From Candidatus Woesearchaeota archaeon (GTDB lineage Archaea; Nanobdellota; Nanobdellia; SCGC-AAA011-G17; UBA489): 32,000 bases of DNA. The position numbers and the translations under genes were made by a program. A model generated the notes under the pieces. It ran no database searches. It was not told the DNA's origin and saw nothing but the letters and a program-made list of their open reading frames with translations. Location of the stretch: the NCBI GenBank assembly GCA_964367375.1, contig CAYIXG010000005.1, forward strand, positions 1-32,000, written 5' to 3'. Positions 3,867-30,289 of this stretch are shown here, piece after piece (position 1 is the stretch's first letter; the number at the start of each line of letters is the position of its first letter).

Positions 3867-4328
3867 TTACACCATAATAACGTTGTTTGTCTCGATACTT
3901 TCTTGCACTGCGCCTCCAATGAGTGGCGTGTAAAAGGTTGGACCATTCGGATTCACGATAAAATCAGCGTAAATAGCCGTGCTTAACATTGTGGATGATG
4001 GAGTTGTCAATCCAAATATAAAAACTCCCCCTGGTTGAAGAGTAGGAACTGCTTGATATTGTGGATAAAAACCAGCAATACCACCAACACTGGTGAAACC
4101 AGCAGCAGTTGTTGGAAGCGCTGGACCTTTCCCTCTATTAGTAATCGTGACTACAACAAATTGACCAGAACGAATCGCAGACACTACCAATTCAGGGAGC
4201 GAATTCTCGAACACTTTTCCTGTCGGCGCCTTTACATTTGGAGGAGACACGAACAACGAAAATGCGAGAATGCCCCCTATTATAAGTACTATCATTGTGA
4301 TCGAAGAATCCTTCCTCTTTTCAACCAT
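3867..4328 (-). CDS. Membrane-anchored/secreted protein with CARDB-like domain
   Basis: Start moved to the internal ATG at 4328 (MVEKRKDSS...). On the minus strand, tttatatat lies about 22 nt upstream of it. An N-terminal TM helix (ITMIVLIIGGILAFSLFV) is followed by PTGKVF. CARDB-like strings are PELVVSAI...VVVTITNRGKGPA and FIVNPNG...ESIETNN. Confidence 0.5.
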   Translation of the reverse strand: MVEKRKDSSITMIVLIIGGILAFSLFVSPPNVKAPTGKVFENSLPELVVSAIRSGQFVVVTITNRGKGPALPTTAAGFTSVGGIAGFYPQYQAVPTLQPGGVFIFGLTTPSSTMLSTAIYADFIVNPNGPTFYTPLIGGAVQESIETNNVIMV

Positions 4329-4442
4329 CTTTAATTTCTTGTATATTATATATAAAAAGTTTATGATACCACGCATCCTCACCTATTCACAACCCTTATA
4401 AAGAAGTTCCTCTTCCCGCATCCTATCAGAAGGAGGTGGCGT

Positions 4443-5233: not shown

Positions 5234-6031
5234 ATGCCCTCTTACTCTCTTGAAACTGTTCGCAAAATGAGCACCGACCGGCTCACTGCATTGAACTCTG
5301 ATTTAGTTCGATATGCAGTTGAAGGCCAAGATGCTGCTCTTTATGGACTTCTCGTTGAGCGATTAGGATTATCTATTAATCACCCCCTTCTTTACGAACG
5401 CTTTCAAACAGATTTTGGCAACCATCACTCACGAACGCCCCTTCCCCAATCCTCAGTTCTCCCTTTTACAGCAACCCATCACCACAACTTTGGCATTACC
5501 CAAGCAAAAAACCTTGAAACTTCTCTTACTGAACAAGGATTGCGATGGTTCTTTTATGGCATCAGAAATGCACCTGACATTCCTGCAGGACTTCTTGATG
5601 TGTTGCACCCAAAAGCGGAAATTATTGACCTTTATATTGGTATATGGAAAAACAAATTCAGACACAAAGATACGGAAGAACCACGCACTTTCCCTCCTGA
5701 AACTTTTGTTATAGAAGCTGCACGCATTATTACCCTTGGAAACTCGTTCCAACACGAATACTTGAATGGAAATAACGCCCTCTCTGGCTTTGATGCATCA
5801 TCACTACATCCTTTACCAGCACGCCTTGCAACAGTTCCAGACAAAGATCAAGATCAATTCATGACAGCACTTGGAAGAAAAACTCTTCTCCCCATGTGGA
5901 GAGAAAAAGGAGAATGGCACGGCCATGGATTCATGGTATCTCCACGCAAAAAAGGACAATTTAATGCACACGCGTACGCACTTGCAATTTATAGACACTT
6001 CAAAGAGAAAGAAGAAAAACTTCTTCACTAA
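5234..6031 (+). CDS. Hypothetical cytoplasmic protein
   Basis: Long ORF with uniform coding look. The ATG at 5234 is preferred to the TTG at 5213 because tttataaa (5203-5210) lies about 25-30 nt upstream of it. No motif recognised. Confidence 0.55.
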   Translation: MPSYSLETVRKMSTDRLTALNSDLVRYAVEGQDAALYGLLVERLGLSINHPLLYERFQTDFGNHHSRTPLPQSSVLPFTATHHHNFGITQAKNLETSLTEQGLRWFFYGIRNAPDIPAGLLDVLHPKAEIIDLYIGIWKNKFRHKDTEEPRTFPPETFVIEAARIITLGNSFQHEYLNGNNALSGFDASSLHPLPARLATVPDKDQDQFMTALGRKTLLPMWREKGEWHGHGFMVSPRKKGQFNAHAYALAIYRHFKEKEEKLLH

Positions 6032-7188
6032 TCCTCATTCTTTCCTGTAGACTCAGCAACACACTTGCACATTCCTCCAACATTATTACAATTTGGTTTC
6101 TCTGGAGGACAAGGCCCATTACAGAAACCTCCTAGTCCTGGAGGATTTCCCTCACATGATGGAGCAGGAGGAGCAACACACACACAATTTTGACAAGTAT
6201 TTGGCGCTGTGCACAACTTTCCTAAATTATTAATACATGTTCCCTGTGCATTTCTTGTTCCACACTGCGCTCCTGGAGAACCCGGCGCAGGACCAGTTGC
6301 TCCTGCAGGGCTAAGCGTCCAGCCACCATATCCTGTTGGCGTAGGCGCCTTCCCTGTCTGTGTGACTTGCGTAAGACCTTGTTCTGTCAACGGATTTCCT
6401 GGAGGAAGCGTATTCCCACAGTGGCTATTTGTAATCGTCTGAATAATTAATGTATACAATCGCATAAACTCTTTTAGAATTTGATTCGTTGCACCCTTCA
6501 TAAATGTTGCATATTGTAACCTTTCTAATATTTCATTAAATTGTGGTAGCCACTCATTGATAAACACCAGATTTAAACTTGGAGGCAAACGATATCCTGG
6601 ACCACCTGGAAGATTCCAATACGCACCCTGCCCTCCAAATCCTGGAAGACTCATAATCCAACTCGCCAATTGCGGCGTTAACACAAAAAAATTCTGCCCA
6701 TTAAAATTCATCAACGCAGCTGCAAAAGGATCAACCAGCCTCCCACCTATCAAGCTATGTAACGCATTTTTATACTGATCACTTAAACTATTTAATTCGT
6801 TATTAATTGCATTTATCTGATTTTGCCAGTATCCAACATCATATGCAAGCATCACCATATATGGCTCGAACACATACAACACTAATTGTAGTGTTGTTGT
6901 TCCTGTACACCCTGTTGAGAACACTCCTGGAAGAATGATTAATTGTCCACCAAATGTTGTTGCAAATAAATTAAGTACACCCAATTGATCCAGAATGCCG
7001 TTTAACTGAGGAAAATTTCCTTCTGTTGGAAAGAAAGGACCATTTGGAGGTGCTGTTAAACTGTTTCCTGAAGCACTCAGAGCTACTTGTTTTCCCGTAT
7101 ATGAACTATCTAAAAAAATGATTCCTATCGCAACAGCGACAAAAATGCCTATAATAAGAATACTTTTTGTCTCACTCTTTTTTTCCAT
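6028..7188 (-). CDS. Secreted/anchored protein: N-terminal TM helix plus YTGKQV motif, and a C-terminal 78-aa 12-Cys domain
   Basis: N-terminus is MEKKSETKSILIIGIFVAVAIGIIFLDSSYTGKQV. The C-terminus CGTRNAQGTC...CNGPCPPEKPNCNNVGGMCKCVAESTGKNED is paralogous to the C-terminus of 8338-9852. A minus-strand TATA (tttttatac) lies about 30 nt upstream. Confidence 0.75.
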   Translation of the reverse strand: MEKKSETKSILIIGIFVAVAIGIIFLDSSYTGKQVALSASGNSLTAPPNGPFFPTEGNFPQLNGILDQLGVLNLFATTFGGQLIILPGVFSTGCTGTTTLQLVLYVFEPYMVMLAYDVGYWQNQINAINNELNSLSDQYKNALHSLIGGRLVDPFAAALMNFNGQNFFVLTPQLASWIMSLPGFGGQGAYWNLPGGPGYRLPPSLNLVFINEWLPQFNEILERLQYATFMKGATNQILKEFMRLYTLIIQTITNSHCGNTLPPGNPLTEQGLTQVTQTGKAPTPTGYGGWTLSPAGATGPAPGSPGAQCGTRNAQGTCINNLGKLCTAPNTCQNCVCVAPPAPSCEGNPPGLGGFCNGPCPPEKPNCNNVGGMCKCVAESTGKNED

Positions 7189-7548: not shown

Positions 7549-8322
7549 TTGACTGTACAATCTCGTGTTTTACACTCACCACATCTTCGGCTTTTTTTCT
7601 TTGCGCTTTTCATAATTATAGGCGCTTTTTTAATCACCACTTTTAAGCCAGAACTTACTGGAAAGCAAGTCCTGAGCACAACACCTACTCTTGAAAGCAC
7701 GACATCTACAGTTACAGTTCCTGCAATAAGTTATGCAACATCAGCTACAGGAGATATCCTTCACCTTGAATTACAAACTGGAGAAGATTATGTTGCGTGC
7801 TCAGTCACGCCGCTCGGAGACCAGTCAAGCGTACCCTCAGTAACGCCACGATTACCTGATGGACGTGCATTACCCACATATTCTGAGGGCGGACCAAATT
7901 TCCAACACACTACAATTACCTTAATTCGCATCCTTGGAGAGTGCGAAAACGCGCTCGTTGCTCCAGAAGATCTCCTCAAAATTATTGATAACCCTTCTCG
8001 CCTTTCCCCAGTATCCTATGACCTCTTATTATCGCTTGAGGAAGTTGTGTGCCCACAACCAGCACCTACTGCTTCATATCAAAATATACCTGAAGTAATA
8101 GATGCGGCGTGGGAAGCATACGAAACCATGGATGGAGGAACAGCTATTTACAATATTTATTCCACTACATTATATGGCGCACTTGCCGCTCCAGGAAGCA
8201 CCTTGTTTGCTCAAGCAGCACAAAGCAAGAGCTGTATTGTTCCTGTTTATGTTGGATGGAAGTGTACTGCGACACAAAAAGTTCAACCCAACCAAGATTG
8301 TACTGTTCTCGCTGTCGACTAA
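7549..8322 (+). CDS. Secreted/anchored hypothetical protein (TM helix plus LTGKQV motif)
   Basis: TTG start is preceded by aaGGTGaa at 8-nt spacing. N-terminus is LFFFALFIIIGAFLITTFKPELTGKQV. The ectodomain is Ser/Thr-rich with 6 Cys. The next gene starts 15 nt downstream. Confidence 0.65.
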   Translation: MTVQSRVLHSPHLRLFFFALFIIIGAFLITTFKPELTGKQVLSTTPTLESTTSTVTVPAISYATSATGDILHLELQTGEDYVACSVTPLGDQSSVPSVTPRLPDGRALPTYSEGGPNFQHTTITLIRILGECENALVAPEDLLKIIDNPSRLSPVSYDLLLSLEEVVCPQPAPTASYQNIPEVIDAAWEAYETMDGGTAIYNIYSTTLYGALAAPGSTLFAQAAQSKSCIVPVYVGWKCTATQKVQPNQDCTVLAVD

Positions 8323-8337
8323 AAAAATAATAATCAC

Positions 8338-9852
8338 ATGCAAAACATGGTTACCCTTCACAAAATTAACGGCACCTTGGTTTTTTTACTTGTTTTGTTA
8401 CTATCGAGCGTTCCGTTTGGTGTGGCGCAACCAGGAACATTAGCACCTCCTGTTACTCCTTGGGGAGTTGCAGCAAATGGACAGCTGATACTTCAGCCTC
8501 CACTTCCCAACACTCAAACCTTGCCAGGCACTCGTGTTCCCCAATATGGCAGCGGACAACAACCCACACAACCTTCTTGGATGTCCTGGTGGGTGTGGTA
8601 TAATTTTATTAATAGCTTAACTCCTGTGCAAGCTCCTCTACCTCCTTCATCTAAACCCCAACCTACACCATCTTACACCACACCCATCGGAGGCAGTTTA
8701 CCAACACAACCCGGAACCGTTATTGGTATCAACATCCCCGGAACCTCAACTCCTGATTGGGAAGCAATAAATGATGCAATATTATCCTTTTTAGAAGTTC
8801 TTCCTTTTGATGCTTCTGTGTCTGTAGGAACAAATTCGCGCATTGATCAAACAACTGGTTCACAACTTTGCCAACAGCCTCCACCAAACGCAAATTTCAT
8901 CTACATGGGCCTTTACGTTCCTGCCACATCTTGTGCGAGTCTTTCTGCAGCATTAGCATCAGGAAAACAACCAGTACTCATTCCAGGTCTTTCATTACAA
9001 ACTGTTGGAGATTCGCATACTCCTTCTTGTCCTAATCCTACATGCAGTGGAAAGAATCCTTCAACAAACGCAGCTGCGCAAGGATCTTGTGTTCCCAAAA
9101 TTATTAGCAAAAACCCAGATGGATATTATCCTACACGCGGAACAATCGATGATATAGAAAGAGTTGTTGCTCGCATTCGAGCAACTCCCCGGTATTCTTC
9201 TACAATATCCTCTCAACACCTTAGTATATTACGACAGATTCTTATTGCAGCACTTCAAATACCTGGAACCCACCCGCTCTATAATTCCATTCAAGGCATC
9301 GCGAGCTATTTGAGTGCACTCCTCATTCCTGGAAGTGGAATGATGGGATGCACAATGATGTTTAAACTACACTTTGGCTGTTTTTGTTACTCTTCTCCTG
9401 GTGTTCGAATGATTCCTCTTGAAACTAAACAAGGCAATACTCCTCCATTTAACCGATTGTTCGGAAGAACTGGTGGCTCAATTGGTTCTGGACCTTCAGG
9501 AACAGGAGGAATCACAAGTAGTCAACCAAATCCTTTTGGTGGTCGTATTTTAGCGGCTATTTTGTCTGCGTTTGGGTTCACTGGTGGCGCACCTCAACAA
9601 CCTGGAGGGTTTGAATGCAGTGGTGATATTTCTGGGAAAACGTGTGTACCTGACAACACTAAGTGTGTTGCTCCAAAAATCTGCAGTGGCACATGCACGT
9701 GCATTACTCCTGCCACCCCGACGTGTGCTGGCAGCTATCCCGCATGCAACGGACCCTGCCCTGCACCACAAACATGCCAAACAATAGGAACCACATGCCA
9801 ATGCAAAGGCACCACCACACCCACTAAAGAGCCTGAAGAAAACAAAGACTGA
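8338..9852 (+). CDS. Secreted protein: Sec-type signal peptide, P/Q/T-rich region, and a C-terminal 78-aa 12-Cys domain
   Basis: The signal is GTLVFLLVLLLSSVPFGVA|QPG. The C-terminal CSGDISGKTC...CNGPCPAPQTCQTIGTTCQCKGTTTPTKEPEENKD has the same Cys spacing and the same 78-aa length as 6031-6264 on the minus strand. Confidence 0.8.
   Translation: MQNMVTLHKINGTLVFLLVLLLSSVPFGVAQPGTLAPPVTPWGVAANGQLILQPPLPNTQTLPGTRVPQYGSGQQPTQPSWMSWWVWYNFINSLTPVQAPLPPSSKPQPTPSYTTPIGGSLPTQPGTVIGINIPGTSTPDWEAINDAILSFLEVLPFDASVSVGTNSRIDQTTGSQLCQQPPPNANFIYMGLYVPATSCASLSAALASGKQPVLIPGLSLQTVGDSHTPSCPNPTCSGKNPSTNAAAQGSCVPKIISKNPDGYYPTRGTIDDIERVVARIRATPRYSSTISSQHLSILRQILIAALQIPGTHPLYNSIQGIASYLSALLIPGSGMMGCTMMFKLHFGCFCYSSPGVRMIPLETKQGNTPPFNRLFGRTGGSIGSGPSGTGGITSSQPNPFGGRILAAILSAFGFTGGAPQQPGGFECSGDISGKTCVPDNTKCVAPKICSGTCTCITPATPTCAGSYPACNGPCPAPQTCQTIGTTCQCKGTTTPTKEPEENKD
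9765..9819 (+). repeat. 55-nt exact direct repeat, copy 2 (partner 7410-7464)
   Basis: See copy 1. This copy lies inside the 3' end of the 504-aa gene. Confidence 0.95.
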
Positions 9853-10532: not shown

Positions 10533-10734
10533 ATGTTACTATTATTAAGTAATGCTTTTTAAAGGTTTCTGTATCTCTTTTCTAACCCATACCCTTTACT
10601 CATTCACGTTTTCCTTTTCATCCATTAATACTCTCCAGATAGATCTCGTGTTCAAAGAATATTCATCAGTTATACAAAAATAAAAACTTTATGAAATGTT
10701 CGCCTCTTTTGATTCCTCATTTTTTTCCCACAAG

Positions 10735-10743
10735 TTATATAAA
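10735..10743 (+). promoter_or_regulatory. TATA-box-like element upstream of 10769 gene
   Basis: ttatataaa is centred about 30 nt upstream of the ATG at 10769. This argues against the longer ORF-track start at 10691. Confidence 0.45.
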
Positions 10744-10768
10744 TTACTGGAAACCCTTTTGTTTGCTC

Positions 10769-11461
10769 ATGGAATCAAAAATTATTATCCTCATATTCCT
10801 TATTCTTTTTCTTGCTGTTTTTGTTCCTCAATACACTGGTCGTCAAGTACTTCAAACTGCGTTTTGTGGCGATGGTGTTATCCAGCCTCCAGAAACCTGC
10901 GATCCGGGAAGCCCATCAACTTTGGTTTGTCCTCCATACTCTTATTGCCATCCAACCCAATGCCAATGTGTTTCCCAGTCTATCCCTTACTGGTGGCGCC
11001 CCACTTACTCAGGACCTAACGAAGAACCAGCACCTCCTTATCCTCCTAGTTTACCAGGAATACCTCTTGGAAAAGCTGGCTCCTTAGTCGGAAACCTCCC
11101 TGTAGTAGACACTTGCACAAGCATTACTCTCCCATCAGGCATCACGCCAGGACATGCAGGAACCTTATGCAAGACTGGGATTTGCAGCATCGGCCCCTAT
11201 GAAGGGGAATGCATGTTCAACGGAGAAGGCTGCGAATGCAGGTTTAGTCTTTCTATTTTATCTGGAATTGGTGGCTCATCACCTACTTTATGTGAACACG
11301 CTACTTTAGATCCTGACAATCCAACACCTGCAATCACCTGCGCCTACCACTATTGTCCCCAAGGACTGGGATGTGAGGTTACTAGTGACGGCAAACGTTG
11401 CGAATGCAGACCACTTCCTGTCATTTCTTTACCTGAAGAAGATGCTTCCTCTGAGTATTAA
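10769..11461 (+). CDS. Secreted Cys-rich protein (TM helix plus YTGRQV motif, a CGDG...ETCD repeat, and C-x-C-terminated modules)
   Basis: N-terminus is MESKIIILIFLILFLAVFVPQYTGRQVLQTAFCGDGVIQPPETCDPG. Modules are CPPYSYCHPTQCQC, CKTGICSIGPYEGECMFNGEGCEC and CAYHYCPQGLGCEVTSDGKRCEC. The tail is acidic. Confidence 0.7.
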   Translation: MESKIIILIFLILFLAVFVPQYTGRQVLQTAFCGDGVIQPPETCDPGSPSTLVCPPYSYCHPTQCQCVSQSIPYWWRPTYSGPNEEPAPPYPPSLPGIPLGKAGSLVGNLPVVDTCTSITLPSGITPGHAGTLCKTGICSIGPYEGECMFNGEGCECRFSLSILSGIGGSSPTLCEHATLDPDNPTPAITCAYHYCPQGLGCEVTSDGKRCECRPLPVISLPEEDASSEY

Positions 11462-15797: not shown

Positions 15798-16408
15798 TCG
15801 CAGTCATTGGCGCACCAGGCGTTGGAAAGACGTTTCTCGTCAAGAAATTAGCACACTATCTCAAAGCAGAAACCATACTTGAAAATGTTGACGAAATGCC
15901 CACTCAGATTATAGAAAATTTCAAAGAAAATATTAGGCAAATGGAAACCATTCTTTGGTTTAGAAACAAATGTATCAAAGACATTGAAGAAGCACTCAAA
16001 CTCAAATCACAAGGCAAGATTGTTGTTATGGATACTTATCTCATTTCTAACGAATTGCATATCACAACAATGACTGCAGGCTTTGAACAAGAAATTTTAT
16101 TAGAACAAGCACATTTTGATAGGAAATACATTCCAAAACCAGATGTCGTACTCTTTTTGGATGCTTCGGAAAGCAAGATAAAAGAACTTACTCTCCAAAG
16201 AGGGAGAGATTTTGACACAACTGAAAAGTTTATCCAAAGGAACCTTTCCATAAGGAAAGCCCATCAGGACTACTATCATAAAAACAAAAATTCTCTCATC
16301 TACATCAATCGAGATACTATGGACTTTGAAAACCTAGAGGATATAAAACACATTGTGGATGAAATAAAAAAATTTCTTGAGAAATTTACAATCGAGGAGG
16401 GGAACTAA
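15782..16408 (+). CDS. P-loop kinase of the deoxynucleoside kinase (dNK) family
   Basis: Walker A is IGAPGVGKTF. The lid region LFLDASESKIKELTLQRGRDFDTTEKFIQRNLSIRKAHQDYY matches the dNK 'RGRxxE...Y' pattern. It overlaps the HAD gene by 16 nt. Confidence 0.6.
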   Translation: MEPIIIAVIGAPGVGKTFLVKKLAHYLKAETILENVDEMPTQIIENFKENIRQMETILWFRNKCIKDIEEALKLKSQGKIVVMDTYLISNELHITTMTAGFEQEILLEQAHFDRKYIPKPDVVLFLDASESKIKELTLQRGRDFDTTEKFIQRNLSIRKAHQDYYHKNKNSLIYINRDTMDFENLEDIKHIVDEIKKFLEKFTIEEGN

Positions 16409-16409
16409 C

Positions 16410-16712
16410 ATGAAAAAGTGTTCAGAATGTAATGGAATCATGCACGAGTTAACAGCTCAAACACCCGAGAATATCGAATACTCCTATTACAAATGCAAAA
16501 AATGCGGAGAAGAAGTTGTCGATATGAAGCAATTACACCATGTGGCAGATCAGTATAGGATTTTGAAGAAATATCAAGTACGACTTTCAAAATGGGGTTT
16601 AAGTTTAGGATTGAGGATTCCCAAAGAATTAGTTGAGAAATACCATCTTAAGGATGAAGGAGAAGTAGCAATTATACCTGAGAAAAAAGGAATTCGAATA
16701 ATCCCCTCCTAA
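16410..16712 (+). CDS. Zn-ribbon (MqsA/YgiT-like) fused to an AbrB/MazE/SpoVT-type DNA-binding domain
   Basis: GAGGAGGGG lies 5-8 nt before the ATG at 16410, which starts 2 nt after the kinase stop. The Zn ribbon is CSECNG...YYKCKKCGEE. The swapped-hairpin region is LSKWGLSLGLRIPKELVEKYHLKDEGEVAIIPEKKGIRIIP. Confidence 0.7.
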   Translation: MKKCSECNGIMHELTAQTPENIEYSYYKCKKCGEEVVDMKQLHHVADQYRILKKYQVRLSKWGLSLGLRIPKELVEKYHLKDEGEVAIIPEKKGIRIIPS

Positions 16713-16818
16713 TATCAGAGACATTAAATACTTTTTTTGAATACATAAAACTTAAATCATTCTTTGAGAAATAAAGTTCTAAACTATCTATTTAATAATT
16801 CTTGCAAGATTTTTCGTT

Positions 16819-18258
16819 TCATTTTCTATTACAACCAATCAATCTTTTATAACCAAGATGTAGCAAGTGATGTTCCCTCCTTACTCTTTTTACTACAGAA
16901 TTACTAACACCTAATTTATTTGTAATCTCAGAAACTTTTATAATTGGCTTTTCTTTATACAGCTGGATTATCTGTTGAATTTTTTCTTCTGGAATCTTAC
17001 AGTTCGCTTTATGACCTCTCCTCACGCCGTATCTTTGGCACGTTCTCCGTACAATATTTTCATCGATATCATACTTTTGAGCAATTTTTTTCTGGGATAG
17101 GTAAGGATTATTTGCTGCAAGGGTTGCTATTTCTTCACGTAACCATTCTTGAGTTTTTATTTTTCTTTTCCCAAGATTATTGTCCTTTAAAACGCGTTGA
17201 ACTTTCAGTCTTCCTATAAAAACTCTTTCTGCTAGTTCTCGCGTGTTCGTGATCCCCTTCTTGTAAAGTTCTAGAATCTTATCAACCTTCTCTTGAGATG
17301 TCTTGTTCCATACATTTACTCCTCTCTTTTTGAAATAGTCTGTTTCATTCTTTATATTAAGATACCGTTGCATCATTTTCAAGAATTTTGCATATTTTTG
17401 TCTATGCAATGTCATCAGTCTTTGGTTGAGAAGATGGACGAGGTTTTCTTTTCTTGAAATAATGATGTCTTTATAATTTTTGTAAACTTTTGAAATAATT
17501 TTTAATCTTATTAGGCATCTTTGAATAATCAACCTTTCTTCTTCTTTTACTGCTGATATATGAACTCTAAACTTTTTATATTTATTATCCGATTCTACAC
17601 ATGCTTCACCAGCAATCATTCCTTGTAGAAACCCTCTAATTAACTCTTCTTCAAAAGTAGGCATTTCATTAACAATGTCTTTAATGAACTTCTTAAAAGC
17701 TTGACTCAATAAATTATTTTTAACAGTTATCGTTAATGCTCCTTCATTTTTGGGAATAATATTGTTTGTTTTATTTCTGTAAAGTAACGTTTTTGGATGT
17801 TTTTTATCAAAATCTAAATCTAATTGCATACACCACCATTCTGCTAATGAATCACGCAATTCTATTCTGAGTTCTTCATTTTCTGGTTCTCTTAAATTAA
17901 TCGTAATATTCCAACTCCATGATTTTCTTGAAATATCAAACTCATTCTCAAACCATTTTATCACCATTTTCAGTAATCTTGGATCACTATTACAGAAAAC
18001 GATAGCACCATTGTTTGTTTTACTCATTTCCGCTTGTAATAAACCTATAACCTGGAACGACTCTTTGGTTTTAGAAACGAATCTTGGTATTATCTCTGTA
18101 TATTCTTGTACACGTACTATACCATTTTTATCCGGATCATTTACCTTATAACAAAGGGTTATATGATCTTGTTCGATTCTTGCAGCTAAATCATGTTCTT
18201 TTTCTTCACCTGAAATTATTTTCTTTGGTAAGTATTCTACTAAATCTATTTTGTCCAT
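16819..18258 (-). CDS. Free-standing LAGLIDADG-type homing-endonuclease-like protein with three C-terminal HTH repeats
   Basis: There are two LAGLIDADG-like motifs with typical followers: FQVIGLLQAEMSK..GAIVFCNSDPRLLKMVIKWF and IRGFLQGMIAGEACVES...ISAVKEEERLIIQRCLIRLKI. Three helix-turn-helix-like repeats follow (KILELYKKGITNTRELAERV..., LSQKKIAQKYDIDENIVRR..., KVSEITNKLGVSNSVVKRV...). The gene is much more AT-rich than its flanks. Confidence 0.6.
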   Translation of the reverse strand: MDKIDLVEYLPKKIISGEEKEHDLAARIEQDHITLCYKVNDPDKNGIVRVQEYTEIIPRFVSKTKESFQVIGLLQAEMSKTNNGAIVFCNSDPRLLKMVIKWFENEFDISRKSWSWNITINLREPENEELRIELRDSLAEWWCMQLDLDFDKKHPKTLLYRNKTNNIIPKNEGALTITVKNNLLSQAFKKFIKDIVNEMPTFEEELIRGFLQGMIAGEACVESDNKYKKFRVHISAVKEEERLIIQRCLIRLKIISKVYKNYKDIIISRKENLVHLLNQRLMTLHRQKYAKFLKMMQRYLNIKNETDYFKKRGVNVWNKTSQEKVDKILELYKKGITNTRELAERVFIGRLKVQRVLKDNNLGKRKIKTQEWLREEIATLAANNPYLSQKKIAQKYDIDENIVRRTCQRYGVRRGHKANCKIPEEKIQQIIQLYKEKPIIKVSEITNKLGVSNSVVKRVRREHHLLHLGYKRLIGCNRK

Positions 18259-25373: not shown

Positions 25374-26216
25374 ATGAAGCATTCCCTTCGCATCACCCTT
25401 CTTCTCACTCTTCTTTTTTTCGCCAGTCAACTGATCGGCCTTTTCATTATCAATGATTATCTCACTATCACTACAACAATCGTCGATGGCAAAACCTATC
25501 GCAACGCCACCTGGAGCGAACTCCCTTATGACATTCAACGACCAGCATTCGAAGAAGATACCAGCTTTATCCCGCTCATCCTCATTGTTCTCATCGCAAC
25601 AGGAGCAGTCCTCCTTATTGTCCGCTTTGGCCTCGCACGGCTCTGGAAACTCTGGTTTTTCTTGAGCGTCTGGTTTTGCCTTCTTCTCGCATTCAATAGC
25701 TTTATCCCCCGAACAGCGTCTCTCCTTATTTCCCTACTTCTTGCAGCACTCAAAATATTGAAACCCCATGTGCTTCTGCACAACCTCACTGAACTCTTCA
25801 TCTATGGAGGACTTGCAACAGTCTTTGTTCCTGTGCTTAACGTGATGAGCATTCTCATTCTCCTTGCACTCATCAGCGTGTATGACATGTATGCAGTGTG
25901 GAAAAGCAAACACATGATTGCACTCGCAACCTACCAGACACAGATGAAAGTGTTTGCAGGTTTACTTATTCCTTATCAGAAAAAAACTGCAGTCCTCGGA
26001 GGAGGAGACATAGGATTTCCGCTGCTCTTCGCAGGAGTTCTTCTGAAAACATATGGACCTCTTCCTGCACTCCTTGTTGCCCTTACCGCTACTCTTAGCT
26101 TGCTCATCCTCCTCTTTTTCAGCAAAAAGAATACCTATTACCCCGCGATGCCCTTTCTTACTCTTGGGTGCGTTGCAGGATATCTTCTTAGTTTGGCCCT
26201 TTCACTTCAGGCGTAA
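25374..26216 (+). CDS. Presenilin / signal-peptide-peptidase family (A22) intramembrane aspartyl protease
   Basis: Polytopic membrane protein with the family triad in order: YD (LISVYDMYAV), GxGD (VLGGGDIGFPLLF) and PAL (YGPLPALLVAL). TATA tttaaaaata lies about 25 nt upstream. Confidence 0.82.
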   Translation: MKHSLRITLLLTLLFFASQLIGLFIINDYLTITTTIVDGKTYRNATWSELPYDIQRPAFEEDTSFIPLILIVLIATGAVLLIVRFGLARLWKLWFFLSVWFCLLLAFNSFIPRTASLLISLLLAALKILKPHVLLHNLTELFIYGGLATVFVPVLNVMSILILLALISVYDMYAVWKSKHMIALATYQTQMKVFAGLLIPYQKKTAVLGGGDIGFPLLFAGVLLKTYGPLPALLVALTATLSLLILLFFSKKNTYYPAMPFLTLGCVAGYLLSLALSLQA

Positions 26217-26310
26217 ATTCCTTCCCCTGACAGAAACACACTAATGATTGGGGAATGTTCTCAGTGCCAGAAGTAAAGATTGCGCCACAACTGATACATT
26301 TCACTTCCAT
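26188..26310 (-). CDS. Possible 40-aa Cys-containing micro-protein (not in ORF track)
   Basis: Hand translation gives MEVKCISCGAIFTSGTENIPQSLVCFCQGKEFTPEVKGPN*. On the minus strand, GGTGG lies 7-11 nt upstream and a tatatata block further upstream. It overlaps the 3' end of the protease gene by 29 nt (convergent). Confidence 0.3.
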   Translation of the reverse strand: MEVKCISCGAIFTSGTENIPQSLVCFCQGKEFTPEVKGPN

Positions 26311-26397
26311 TCTTTGAACCACCATATACTGTATATATACTATATGGATATGAATGGATACCCTCTATATAAAGATGCTGGTTTCTTCACTACCCCT

Positions 26398-29300
26398 TTA
26401 CGGCTCAAATAATCTCGTTAACCAACCCACAAAGGACTGCCAGACTGATAGACTTCCAGAGCCAGAACCTGCAGGAACTGTACCTCCCTCCTTCCCAGAT
26501 ACGCCTACAGTTAGATCAGGCGCACTTACTGGCTCTCCTGTTGCCGCATCAGGATCTGTTGGAGGAGTTACCTTCCCTTTTATCATACATTGACAATCAG
26601 AACCTCCTAATTGTTCACACGTTTCCCCTGCAACTGGACACCCACCACCACACACCGGAGCCTTTCCTGCTGGAGTTGTTCCTGGCGGATGCAATAAATC
26701 TCGACACGGTCCTGACCCTGTTCCTGTGGATACACATCCACTACCCGCATCCCCACAATTCACCCCACCACCTGCGGGGCCACCTGCACTTGCTGGACAA
26801 CTTGGCCACACAATCGGACCCCACTGACAATTTGACTCACATGTCACTGTTCCACATAAAATAGTTCCATCAGGACAAATTGCACATCCCCCTGGTGCAG
26901 TTATACCTGGAGGATCGCAGCCCTCACCTGGATCAAGCACCCCATTCCCACACAAATTGAGAGGCATGCAATCACAATGATCTCCATGCGTTTGACACAA
27001 TGGCGCTTCCGGGGGACAACTACCTCCACAGACTAATACATTTCCACATGTTGGACACGTTGCAATAGGAGCACACCCTCCACCCCCTCCTGGACCTCCA
27101 TGACCTATTGGAGGAGATGATGGCAATGGAGGAGGCATTGGACCAGTACAACTTGTTGTCTCAAGTGTACATTCTCCGATAGCTCCCGGTGCCTTACACC
27201 CTAATGTCCCTCCAGTAAATCCAAAGTCATTACACGTCATCCCATTGAAATCAGGACCATCACACTGCTCTGTTATCAAATCATAATTCACCTGCTCACC
27301 ACTCGCAAGCGTCACCCAATTGTTCACCACATTATCCCCGCATGTTGGCCACATACACCCTGAAGGATATGTCATTCCATACACATCACACAATGGCGTT
27401 CCCGGAGGGCAAGAGCATGTTGCACCAGACGTTCCTGGCGCACGATTACAACTATCTGGCACATACGCAAGACAAATATTCCCCCGGTCACAATCCTCAT
27501 ACGGTGGATTTACTAGATTATTCCCGCATAATACTTGCGGCGCAGGTATACAACTATCAGTGTTCAACGTGCAATTTGGATTGCAACTCAATGTCCCTCC
27601 ACCCAAATAACCTACTGTTGCACACGTTTCTCCCTGCAAATCAGGACCATCACACTCTTCAAACTCTCCGTTATTGTTCGGCCATTGCGCTACCCCATCA
27701 CCACAGAAAGATCCTGGACACGTCTCTCCACAATATCGTGTTCCATCAACAAACACCTTTGTATAATGCGTTTGCACCATACTATCAGACAATGCAGTGT
27801 CATATACCACCACACCCTCCACAAATCCTGAAAATTCCGTCCACGGACTTAATGTAATAGGAACTGCCCCTACTGGAGATCCAATTCCAAAAATCCCGTC
27901 AGACGCAATGCTTCCTGTTGCATCATCAATCACAATAGGTGTTGGCGTGCCATCAACATACAAGCGCATAATCTTACTTCCTGCTGAAGTGTGCAAGCGC
28001 ACAAACACTATATGATGCCACTGCCCATCTCCAATGTCTAAGGGCCACTCAATACTTATAGACACCAAATTTACATCCGTGAGCAAGGCACCAATCCTAT
28101 TAATAGGATTTCCCGTGTACCCCACAACATATACTTCTCTTGGCCAATTAAATCCGTACTTTCCCACAATCAACGGATTTTGATTTGTGGTTGTTGACTT
28201 TACTAAGAATTCCACACTAAAGTCGTCATCAGCACCAAAATTCAACGGGCTTGCCGCAAGAATATTCTTTCCCAGAAATGCAGGCGTTCCTGTAAACTCA
28301 ATTGACCCGCACACCGCACCCGGCTGTCCGAAGTTGATCACTCCAGATCCTACTTTGTCTAAATCATTACTCCCTTTGCTATCCACTGCCGTTACTGGAC
28401 CAGCATCATCCAAATTCCACTGCGCCACCCTGTTATTCACACACTCATTCTTCGGCACACATGTCCCTGCTTCGCATTCCATATTTGGATACCCAGTACA
28501 CTCATAATCAAACGAACAAAAGGGTGTTATACACAAACAATTCAGGCACACTAATCCTCCAGCACATCCTGGAGTTCCTGGATCACCACACTGCTCACCA
28601 GGATTGAACACACCATTTCCACACGCTTCTGTTTGACACAATTCATTACATCCGTCTCCTGGAATTGTATTCCCATCATCACATTGTTCTGGAACACCAT
28701 CATAATTCACCAAGCTTCCCCCTGATGTCGATGCAATATTATTCACTATTCCATCCCCGCATGTCGGCCAACGACAGCCTTGAAACGTGCTAATACTTTC
28801 CCCTGTTCCTGCCAATGGACCTATGGAAATGGGAGGCACACCACTTGTGCACGCTACGTCATCCTCATCACACGCACATCCCGAGCCACCAATTATCCCT
28901 GGGGGATTATTCAAGTCGCCTAAATCACATTCCTCTCCTGATTGAATAGTATCATCACCACACCCTGTTTTTTCGCACGCACCAGACACACACGTGTGTC
29001 CTGGCGGACAATTTGCATTTGTTGTACACAAACATTCACATGCATTCACACTTTCCGCTGCACCACACACTACAATTGGAGGAAATTGCGGCGGCGCTTT
29101 TGCTAATGGACATATTCCTCCATCAGCACCATCACACTGCTCAAAGCCTTCTCGCAAATTATTCCCACATAAAATAACAATAATCACATTGCCTGCGTTA
29201 AACAACCTAACTTCGTGCAGACCTTCACTTGCCGGCCAATCACCCTGCATCTGCATCGGCATCCTCCAATGCATGACACCACCTTTCCACCCAATCTGCA

Positions 29301-29577
29301 AGTCACTTCCAACCACATCCGCCCACTCGATACCTGAAGGATTATTAATCACAATCGTTTTTGACGATCCCTCACCCAATGAGATCAACTGATTCACACC
29401 GGTTACTGTTGTCTCTGCATTCTGATCAAGACTTGACTCTCGCGAACCTTCCAAGCGCGACGTTGACAAGAAAAATAAAGGAATAATTAGGATGAACATC
29501 ACACCCATAAGAACAATTGTCTCCAGCGAGGACTGCGACTTCGCAACTCCCTCTTTTACTTTTTTTCTCATCACCAC
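26398..29577 (-). CDS. Giant (1,059 aa) Cys-rich surface protein: class III (type IV pilin-like) signal peptide, CGDG...ExCD cysteine repeats, LamG/ConA-like lectin domain, C-x-C-terminated modules
   Basis: The N-terminus KKVKEGVAKS|QSSLETIVLMGVMFILIIPLFFL has the same Q+1/E+5 pattern as the adjacent pilin. Repeats are of the type CGDGIVNN...EQCDDGNTIPGDGCNELCQTEACGNGVFNPGEQCGD (Myxococcus-type cysteine-rich repeat). The LamG_3-like core reads DDFSVEFLVK...GQWHHIVFVRL...MRLYVDGT...FSGFVEGVVVYDTALS. C-terminal modules are CGGSCPPEAPLCQTHGDHCDC and CGGGCPVAGETCEQLGGSDCQC. Confidence 0.85.
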   Translation of the reverse strand: MVMRKKVKEGVAKSQSSLETIVLMGVMFILIIPLFFLSTSRLEGSRESSLDQNAETTVTGVNQLISLGEGSSKTIVINNPSGIEWADVVGSDLQIGWKGGVMHWRMPMQMQGDWPASEGLHEVRLFNAGNVIIVILCGNNLREGFEQCDGADGGICPLAKAPPQFPPIVVCGAAESVNACECLCTTNANCPPGHTCVSGACEKTGCGDDTIQSGEECDLGDLNNPPGIIGGSGCACDEDDVACTSGVPPISIGPLAGTGESISTFQGCRWPTCGDGIVNNIASTSGGSLVNYDGVPEQCDDGNTIPGDGCNELCQTEACGNGVFNPGEQCGDPGTPGCAGGLVCLNCLCITPFCSFDYECTGYPNMECEAGTCVPKNECVNNRVAQWNLDDAGPVTAVDSKGSNDLDKVGSGVINFGQPGAVCGSIEFTGTPAFLGKNILAASPLNFGADDDFSVEFLVKSTTTNQNPLIVGKYGFNWPREVYVVGYTGNPINRIGALLTDVNLVSISIEWPLDIGDGQWHHIVFVRLHTSAGSKIMRLYVDGTPTPIVIDDATGSIASDGIFGIGSPVGAVPITLSPWTEFSGFVEGVVVYDTALSDSMVQTHYTKVFVDGTRYCGETCPGSFCGDGVAQWPNNNGEFEECDGPDLQGETCATVGYLGGGTLSCNPNCTLNTDSCIPAPQVLCGNNLVNPPYEDCDRGNICLAYVPDSCNRAPGTSGATCSCPPGTPLCDVYGMTYPSGCMWPTCGDNVVNNWVTLASGEQVNYDLITEQCDGPDFNGMTCNDFGFTGGTLGCKAPGAIGECTLETTSCTGPMPPPLPSSPPIGHGGPGGGGGCAPIATCPTCGNVLVCGGSCPPEAPLCQTHGDHCDCMPLNLCGNGVLDPGEGCDPPGITAPGGCAICPDGTILCGTVTCESNCQWGPIVWPSCPASAGGPAGGGVNCGDAGSGCVSTGTGSGPCRDLLHPPGTTPAGKAPVCGGGCPVAGETCEQLGGSDCQCMIKGKVTPPTDPDAATGEPVSAPDLTVGVSGKEGGTVPAGSGSGSLSVWQSFVGWLTRLFEP

Positions 29578-29767
29578 TTTTTTTAACCTCTTGTAGATGC
29601 ACTTCTCTTCTCTTTAAATAATTTTTTATACACTTTCTTTTCATTCTTTTTTCTTTTTATCTGTAGAGTGGTGAACAGAAGCAGATACATTTATATACAA
29701 GCACACCCTTACAAAACGCGTCAGACTTTAATCCAATAGTCCAAAAAAACGGAGAGGTGAATCAACC

Positions 29768-30289
29768 ATGATGAAAAGAGGTCAAGCCGCCATGGAGTTC
29801 TTAATGACCTATGGGTGGGCATTACTTGTTGTTCTTGTTGCCATCGGAGCACTCGCATTCTTTGGAGTGTTAAATCCCGGACAATTCTTACCTGATCAAT
29901 GTGTGTTCTTTGCAGGACTCACCTGCCAGAACGCGTATGCAGACGCGGATGATAACAATGCTGCAGTAGGTGGAAACTCTGTCATTGTTTTCGACGCACA
30001 AAATGGCCTTGGATACACCATGACAGGCTTTGATATTCCATTATTACAAGTTAGTATTTCTGGAACAGGTGGTGCTCTTTCAGTTACTGGTACTCCTATA
30101 CAATGTGATGGAACAGCAAACCTTGTTGATGGAACCACAACAAAATGTACCATCAACTTTGGCCCACCCACACCAGGCGGATTTAATGTTGGAGAGAAAG
30201 TTAAAGGAACCATTTCCCTAAGCTGGGATGATGCAGCAGGACAATCACACACCAGAACAGGAACCTTATCCTTAACAGCAGAAGGTTAA
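29768..30289 (+). CDS. Archaeal type IV pilin-like protein (class III signal peptide)
   Basis: MMKRG|QAAMEFLMTYGWALLVVLVAIGALAFFG is a classical archaeal prepilin N-terminus: a basic residue, Gly, Q+1, E+5, then a hydrophobic helix. GGAGAGGTGA lies before the ATG and tttatatac about 70 nt upstream. The beta-rich body has 4 Cys. Confidence 0.8.
   Translation: MMKRGQAAMEFLMTYGWALLVVLVAIGALAFFGVLNPGQFLPDQCVFFAGLTCQNAYADADDNNAAVGGNSVIVFDAQNGLGYTMTGFDIPLLQVSISGTGGALSVTGTPIQCDGTANLVDGTTTKCTINFGPPTPGGFNVGEKVKGTISLSWDDAAGQSHTRTGTLSLTAEG

Follow-up and report, generated by a model that had tools for sequence, protein, structure and literature searches.

The DNA analysed here, positions 1 to 32,000 of contig CAYIXG010000005.1 from a Candidatus Woesearchaeota archaeon (the window), contains a gene on the reverse strand at 26398..29577 whose product joins a predicted pilin module to a long array of cysteine-rich repeats, a LamG domain, and small cysteine modules. 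We refer to it as the large protein. The window is archaeal, as it encodes ribosomal proteins S13, S4, S11, L18e, L13, and S9 and RNA polymerase subunit D, and its sequence has also been assembled from the 0.1-µm filter fraction of Hainich groundwater. The open reading frame (ORF) spans 1059 amino acids from a GTG start, which is the numbering used below. Public gene calls begin at the ATG at 29571, two codons downstream, and give a protein of 1057 residues (P0001, 100% identical, from independent assemblies and encoded on a contig of 112,548 bp); this ATG is the more likely start. The 1059-residue form contains 78 cysteines (7.4% of residues). A preliminary description of the window had proposed the protein to be a pilus-borne adhesin, and the ORF and all motifs that it named could be located on the sequence where it had placed them. 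The features of the locus are as follows.

26398..29577 (-), whole gene, encoding the putative 1059-residue modular pilin (ORF listing; identical public protein P0001)
29536..29577 (-), basic leader peptide MVMRKKVKEGVAKS, residues 1–14, with a predicted prepilin-peptidase cut after Ser14
29464..29535 (-), predicted mature start, QSSLE and then a hydrophobic helix, residues 15–38 (hydropathy and AlphaFold)
29170..29535 (-), pilin module, residues 15–136, predicted as a long N-terminal helix and a seven-strand β-head (stand-alone-pilin profile, exhaustive search, AlphaFold)
28429..29169 (-), cysteine-rich block 1, residues 137–383, starting with CGNNLREGFEQCDG directly after the last pilin strand (regular expression, TIGR02232)
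27775..28251 (-), LamG or concanavalin-A-like lectin domain, residues 443–601 (Pfam PF13385, Laminin_G_3)
27145..27732 (-), cysteine-rich block 2, residues 616–811, with units parallel to those of block 1 (regular expression, comparison by eye)
27076..27141 (-), Pro/Gly hinge PMPPPLPSSPPIGHGGPGGGGG, residues 813–834 (sequence)
26968..27030 (-), CGGSCPPEAPLCQTHGDHCDC module, residues 850–870 (sequence)
26587..26652 (-), CGGGCPVAGETCEQLGGSDCQC module, residues 976–997 (sequence)
29578..29767 (no strand), AT-rich divergent intergenic region of 190 nucleotides, shared by the large gene and the small pilin gene
29768..30289 (+), partner pilin of 173 residues with the N terminus RG↓QAAMEFLMTYGWALLVV, probable major filament subunit, whose N-terminal helix is nearly invariant in its family

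N terminus and pilin module

The N terminus of the large protein reads MVMRKKVKEGVAKS↓QSSLETIVLMGVMFILIIPLFFLSTS, where the arrow marks the predicted cleavage site. The leader is in register with the consensus of the protein family described below (Lys or Arg at −2, Gly, Ala, or Ser at −1, Gln at +1, and Glu or Asp at +5). In the sequence around the site, KS↓QSSLETIVL, Lys occupies position −2, Ser position −1, Gln position +1, and Glu position +5, and QSSLETIVL is an exact match to QXSXEXXXL. This motif is the mark of euryarchaeal DUF361 proteins, which the dedicated peptidase EppA cuts before the Gln (PMC2910488, PMC4371748). The Kyte–Doolittle mean over a 19-residue window is maximal at residues 20–39 (2.65), consistent with a hydrophobic stretch of ∼20 residues, and residues 15–38 lie inside one continuous helix in the AlphaFold models.

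We searched the 142 ORFs of at least 60 residues in the window with a class III expression that requires [KR][GAS]Q...[ED] and then at least 17 hydrophobic or small residues within the first 60 positions. Only two ORFs match, the large gene and the divergently transcribed gene for the 173-residue pilin, whereas shuffled N termini gave 0.0 matches on average. The two genes, 190 nucleotides apart, share this predicted prepilin architecture, as the preliminary description had noticed.

The N terminus resembles not only the signal peptide of archaeal pilins but an entire pilin. A profile built from 38 stand-alone archaeal pilins of ∼130 residues matches residues 11–132 of the large protein with 67.5 bits (E = 6e-17 in a database of one million sequences). 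Because this profile contained stand-alone pilins only, the pilin assignment is not circular. Word-indexed searches with N-terminal profiles returned a handful of unnamed proteins, so an exhaustive HMMER search with the N-terminal profile was needed, which gave 842 cluster representatives at a threshold of E ≤ 1e-3, 108 of them at E ≤ 1e-10. Among the best 148 family members, 48 have the size of a stand-alone pilin (at most 160 residues) and 67 exceed 300 residues. The motif is present in 141 of these 148, with Gly (72), Ala (55), or Ser (14) at −1; all 141 have Gln at +1, Glu (114) or Asp (22) occupies +5, and Lys or Arg is found at −2 in 103. The homology spans ∼125 residues and includes hundreds of small archaeal pilins whose N termini fit [KR][GAS]↓Q...E, and the sequence supports a predicted class III signal peptide with a whole pilin module behind it rather than a mere membrane anchor. 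The class III (prepilin-type) signal proposed earlier for the large protein is supported by the family motif and the homology to small archaeal pilins.

The first ∼135 residues of the large protein recur in three full-length relatives (P0032, P0015, and P0052) and in several fragments. This group keeps the pattern [S/A/G]↓QS[ST]x[ED]xxxL and then passes directly into CGNN...EQCDG. In a full-length homology search, most matches were bacterial DUF4215 proteins aligned over the repeats only, and the N terminus was common only to P0015, P0032, and P0052. All closer relatives keep both the N-terminal helix and the motif; the loss of the helix in orthologues, a possibility raised in the preliminary description, was not seen.

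AlphaFold models the pilin module (alignment of 40 sequences) with a predicted local distance difference test score (pLDDT) of 93.8 and a predicted template-modelling score (pTM) of 0.74. The model consists of a 55-residue helix (residues 10–65) and seven strands, and an earlier AlphaFold model agrees on this helix-plus-head organization. In outline, the predicted fold resembles a type IV pilin. When the family profile was compared with the sequences of the PDB, the best match was marginal, an archaeal “Flagellin” filament chain (9v96_A, E = 0.0038). Weak matches to DUF7262 (E = 0.088) and HpsJ (E ∼0.01) were below threshold and were discarded. Pfam and NCBIfam searches of the whole protein identified the LamG domain and the cysteine repeats alone and left the N terminus unmatched. 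The pilin-module family is new in the sense of previously unnamed: it has no Pfam model, and the few source names that were returned all read “hypothetical protein.” The large protein is among its largest members.

The cargo begins where the pilin strands end. Six units of the form CG[DN]x...[EQ][EQ]C[DG] start at residues 137, 206, 273, 319, 625, and 746, and a seventh (CGNN...EDCD, residue 684) was missed by the expression. The parallel between blocks 1 and 2 is visible by eye; a self-BLAST gave no internal match. Of the two cysteine-repeat models named in the preliminary description, TIGR02232 (myxo_disulf_rpt) scores above its cutoff (29.7 versus 20.8 bits), but Pfam DUF4215 stays below (23.3 versus 27 bits). 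The Laminin_G_3 domain (39.3 bits versus a cutoff of 27.6) lies within the region at nucleotides 27763–28425, corresponding to residues 385–605, that had been described as a LamG core, and the Pro/Gly hinge that had been described is likewise present, at residues 813–834 between block 2 and the small modules. DUF2341 gave no score on the large protein at E ≤ 1 in Pfam. The C-terminal tail SLSVWQSFVGWLTRLFEP was considered as a possible anchor and rejected, as it is not conserved among relatives.

The two small modules of the large protein follow the pattern C[GN]GxCPx(4-6)Cx(3)Gx(1-3)CxC, which no family model matches. The pattern also occurs near the C termini of otherwise unrelated secreted proteins, at 6028-7188(-) (residues 356–376) and 8338-9852(+) (residues 470–489) in the window, and in P0015 (L007 2931-5249). 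The module had been reported to end the secreted proteins at 6–11.5 kb; this holds for these two genes, but the protein at 10691-11461(+) carries an approximate version only.

Pairing with a small pilin, pilus operons, and cargo exchange

The N terminus of the small pilin reads MMKRG↓QAAMEFLMTYGWALLVV... (RG↓QAAMEFLMTYGW...). Its family occupies at least 573 loci in GTDB species representatives; with 51% identity for the best match, the genome of the window is not itself among these representatives. Nearly all of the loci bear the title Woesearchaeota, Nanoarchaeota, or Nanoarchaeia, and a minority are labelled “uncultured Methanosarcinales” or “archaeon.” The small pilin often occurs in one to four tandem copies beside pilus operons, and we infer that it is the major filament subunit. 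Because the N-terminal alignment of the family of the large protein has no conserved stretch of 7–10 columns, we anchored the comparison of loci on the neighbouring small pilin. From the at least 573 loci, 80 were retrieved (1.08 Mb, 1,763 ORFs), and all counts of related loci refer to this set.

A member of the pilin family of the large protein is encoded divergently to a small pilin in 26 of the 80 loci, and the gap to the nearest small-pilin copy measures 64–170 nucleotides in most of these. In at least 10 loci (L012, L020, L023, L041, L050, L053, L069, L074, L076, and L083), the family member opens an operon that continues with three more pilin-like genes, two membrane proteins, an ATPase, and two platform (TadC-like) genes. 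Pfam confirmed one T2SSE and two T2SSF domains in L023. One ATPase together with two platform genes is reported as “system 1” of methanogens and DPANN archaea (bioRxiv 10.64898/2026.04.22.720090), and the operons of the relatives match this arrangement. A second layout without machinery is found in the window and its closest relatives (L009 and L010), in which the pair adjoins a presenilin-type gene.

The pilus operons of relatives also encode a Lys-rich membrane protein of 228–604 residues (L023 4054-5868(-), L069 5203-5955(-), and L076 6710-7396(-)) with the conserved C-terminal pattern LDxLYELV...AEEW..ILE...L..I.YP..G. It has no Pfam match and may be an uncharacterised accessory component.

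Family members in operon position range from bare pilins of 131–143 residues to cargo carriers of 200–517 residues, and those of detached pairs reach 600–1059 residues. Among relatives paired with a small pilin, the cargo is an NHL propeller in L009 (1013 residues), a LamG domain in L010 (600 residues), and a PKD domain in L002 (582 residues), and other long members carry LamG, NHL, or MopE motifs. BLAST identity between the large protein and its relatives spans the pilin module and the first cysteine block and then stops.

Paralogues of the family can also lie side by side, with two to three per locus (L010 4938-9345(-), L021 2371-6517, and L041 8299-9844(-)), and differ in length (e.g. 652, 191, and 600 residues), which suggests that they are alternative, exchangeable subunits. 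A further variation concerns the interval between the presenilin-like gene and the small pilin. In L008 (734-2182), the small pilin follows directly, without a large modular pilin between; in L013 (3176-5565), the two are separated by ∼1 kb without a pilin-family gene; and in the window (25374-30289), L009, and L010, the interval holds one to three modular pilin genes. It behaves like a variable adhesin islet.

The presenilin/signal-peptide-peptidase homologue of the window, at 25374-26216(+), matches PF06550 with 38.9 bits and contains YD and GGGD motifs. It adjoins the pilin pair in the window as well as in four close relatives (L008 734-1564, L009 1421-2320, L010 6-509, and L013 3176-4015), and a further homologue stands beside a pilus ATPase operon at L087 4381-5172. 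In a search of the 80 pilin-anchored loci for an A24 prepilin peptidase (GxGD motif and at least four transmembrane segments), presenilin-type genes were the sole GxGD polytopic proteins found in the 1.08 Mb, and neither an A24 prepilin peptidase nor an EppA gene was seen near any of the 80 loci. A functional link between the presenilin homologue and the pilins was considered and rejected as not significant. The association is seen in 5 of 80 loci with ∼1 expected by chance in 1.08 Mb, but it is unconvincing because four of the cases come from one clade with shared synteny.

Proposed display of the cargo and competing explanations

The gene product is probably a type IV pilin of the modular kind, with which this DPANN (Woesearchaeota-like) archaeon shows an adhesive cargo on a pilus, a reading to which we assign a probability of about 0.68. 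A minor or tip pilin with adhesive cargo, as the preliminary description had put it, stands as the best reading because of the pilin homology, the kept motif, the conserved pairing with a small pilin, and the relatives that lead pilus operons. The precursor would enter the membrane via its class III signal peptide, and a prepilin peptidase that accepts Gln at +1, as EppA does, would take off the basic leader of 12–14 residues after Ser14 and expose the Gln. The 122-residue pilin module would then dock into a type IV pilus composed mainly of the divergently encoded 173-residue pilin and assembled by an ATPase and two platform proteins whose genes would lie elsewhere in the genome. The cargo of ∼920 residues directly after the last pilin strand would place the subunit at the tip of the filament, where it would act as a priming or tip minor pilin; because no linker separates the last strand from the cargo, the tip is the sterically plausible place, as modelled for PilB and PilC of Streptococcus sanguinis. 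There, the protein may present its disulfide-stabilised Cys-repeat stalks and LamG lectin and bind a ligand, probably a glycan, on the surface of a host cell or a substrate.

Several observations weigh against a pilus-borne subunit. The large gene is followed by the convergent presenilin-like gene and not by a pilus operon, the gene is detached from any machinery operon here as well as in L002, L009, L010, and L015, and the window and the 7.5 kb beyond it (∼40 kb in total) contain neither an ATPase nor a platform protein, a further minor pilin, or an A24 peptidase. This detachment, and the difficulty of moving a cargo of 920 residues through a filament assembly site, would suit a protein that is processed like a pilin but builds no long pilus. 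A short pseudopilus or raft of the kind proposed for the Sulfolobus bindosome would then display it at the cell surface, with the cargo as a cell-proximal adhesin or ligand-capture protein. We consider this unlikely in view of the repeated tight pairing with a conserved-helix pilin (26 of 80 loci) and of the complete pilus operons headed by the same family, bare 131–143-residue forms included, which point to a genuine filament subunit. A link to an ATP-binding cassette (ABC) transporter like that of the bindosome proteins is also missing; the ABC genes nearby, at L001 5604-8050, belong to the ABC2 export type, and three genes lie in between.

Three observations could instead indicate that the N terminus is an uncleaved signal anchor, in which case the protein would be a type II membrane-anchored surface adhesin whose pilin likeness is ancestral and no longer functional. 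The residue at −1 is Ser, while validated EppA sites in PMC4371748 have Gly or Ala, and Ser is a minority within the family as well (14 of 141 motif-bearing members, 10%). The Pfam model Class_IIIsignal (PF04021) matches neither the whole protein nor its first 144 residues, even at E ≤ 10, and a Foldseek search of the PDB with two models yielded no significant match to solved structures, pilins included. The lack of both peptidase and machinery within ∼40 kb would fit an anchor, too. However, Ser at −1 is also found in stand-alone pilins (e.g. P0184, P0231, and P0248). PF04021 is only 27 positions long and has a gathering threshold of 23.7 bits, which the stand-alone homologues P0169, P0172, and P0212 exceed (24.3, 27.4, and 24.9 bits). 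Stand-alone pilins (the match at E = 6e-17) and all closer relatives share Gln at +1, Glu at +5, and the full 120-residue head, a degree of conservation unexpected for a relic, and the small pilin is still encoded divergently beside the gene. A signal anchor is quite improbable.

Two further observations concern other genes of the window. A 479-residue protein encoded at 16819-18258(-), close to the ribosomal protein cluster, contains a LAGLIDADG_3 domain and several helix-turn-helix motifs. It lies in a low-GC stretch (16000-18000, GC 0.31–0.32 versus ∼0.38–0.49 over the rest of the window), and the gene is probably a mobile homing-endonuclease gene. Four predicted secreted proteins, at 3867-4382(-), 6028-7188(-), 7549-8322(+), and 10691-11461(+), share an N-terminal transmembrane helix followed by TG[KR][QV] in the variants YTGKQV, LTGKQV, YTGRQV, and PTGKVF. 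The combination occurs in 1 of the 1,763 ORFs of the 80 related loci, and these proteins may be a genome-specific paralogue family or carry an unknown processing site.

Known counterparts and biological meaning

The statement in the preliminary description that no characterised protein has this architecture does not hold, as bacterial modular pilins have been characterised, among them two of S. sanguinis: PilC, whose extra module is a concanavalin-A-like lectin, and PilB, which carries a von Willebrand factor A (vWA) module (PMC8179133, PMC9934059). An InterPro survey of bacterial pilins with an N-methylation motif (IPR012902) counted over 1,200 modular pilins, which fall into 264 architectures; the lectin module of PilC binds glycans, and PilB and PilC, which act as adhesins, have been modelled at the pilus tip (PMC8179133, PMC9934059). 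The large protein falls under the definition of a modular pilin given by Raynaud et al. 2021 (PMC8179133), as its pilin module (residues 15–136) is joined to domains foreign to pili, Laminin_G_3 and the cysteine repeats. It shares with PilB and PilC the predicted class III signal and pilin module, the bulky adhesive module at the C terminus, the genomic position alongside major pilins, and a tip location predicted from a steric clash in the filament body. Whereas the pilin module of PilB and PilC is bacterial (IPR012902), that of the large protein is of the archaeal Gln+1/QXSXEXXXL type and so lies outside the IPR012902 census. PilC has a mass of 52.8 kDa; the large protein is about twice as large and additionally possesses ∼450 residues of disulfide repeats, the Pro/Gly hinge, and the two small cysteine modules. 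The function of PilB and PilC has been shown experimentally; that of the large protein is predicted.

Among archaea, the processing site has a close parallel in the Epd pilins and EppA substrates of Methanococcus maripaludis, in which the leader ends with [KR][GA] and Gln at +1, Glu at +5, and QXSXEXXXL are found as in the family of the large protein (PMC2910488, PMC4371748, PMC3875500). The Epd/EppA-type pilus also belongs to “system 1,” with a single ATPase and two platform genes as in the operons of the relatives. The Epd minor pilins and the ∼70-residue major pilin are small, unlike the large protein. Large archaeal proteins with comparable features are known or have been predicted: adhesin-like DUF2341 proteins in methanococcal archaeal pilus loci and a galactose-binding class III protein are predictions, and the binding proteins of the bindosome are known (PMC4858521, bioRxiv 10.64898/2026.04.22.720090). 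At least one of the predicted pilus adhesins has a class III signal peptide, and a tip location has been proposed, as for the large protein; their domains are DUF2341 or galactose-binding, in contrast to Laminin_G_3 and cysteine repeats. The sugar-binding proteins of the Sulfolobus bindosome combine an archaeal prepilin-type N terminus with a large extracellular ligand-binding domain, which also resembles the organization found here. They possess only the signal peptide and helix, whereas the large protein has a pilin head of ∼120 residues as well, and they are tied to ABC transporters and a dedicated bindosome machinery, with a role in solute capture, not adhesion. A last parallel is provided by CofB of enterotoxigenic Escherichia coli (ETEC) and TcpB of Vibrio cholerae, minor pilins with extra C-terminal domains that are located at the tip and function in adhesion or adaptor binding (PMC8179133). 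These bacterial type IVb proteins form trimers, are much smaller, and have extra β-domains that are neither LamG nor cysteine repeats (PMC8179133). The design is thus known from bacteria and is not characterised in archaea; what is new here is the archaeal pilin-module family, its conserved pairing with a major-type pilin, and its role as a carrier of swappable cargo in DPANN archaea.

Attachment to other cells is the presumed lifestyle of most DPANN archaea, and to our knowledge the molecules that make this contact are almost unknown. The family described here provides a candidate attachment molecule that can be traced by sequence, through its pilin module, its variable adhesive cargo, and its synteny with a conserved pilus operon. 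It would extend the “modular pilin” principle, so far bacterial, to archaea, and the profile with its 842 representatives allows candidates for host recognition to be catalogued across metagenomes. More speculatively, the minor-pilin position of Woesearchaeota and Nanoarchaeota that is transcribed away from the major pilin and opens the pilus operon might serve as a cargo-swapping platform, with the tip pilins as determinants of host or substrate recognition. We regard this idea as tentative. In this view, one module of ∼125 residues is joined to interchangeable LamG, NHL propeller, PKD/Ig, MopE, and cysteine-repeat cargo in proteins of 131 to more than 1,000 residues, at times with several tandem paralogues. 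If it is true, the tip pilins of these ultra-small DPANN cells would be analogous to the receptor-binding proteins of phages, the cargo repertoire would predict host range, and the protein of the window would be one of the largest such adhesins.

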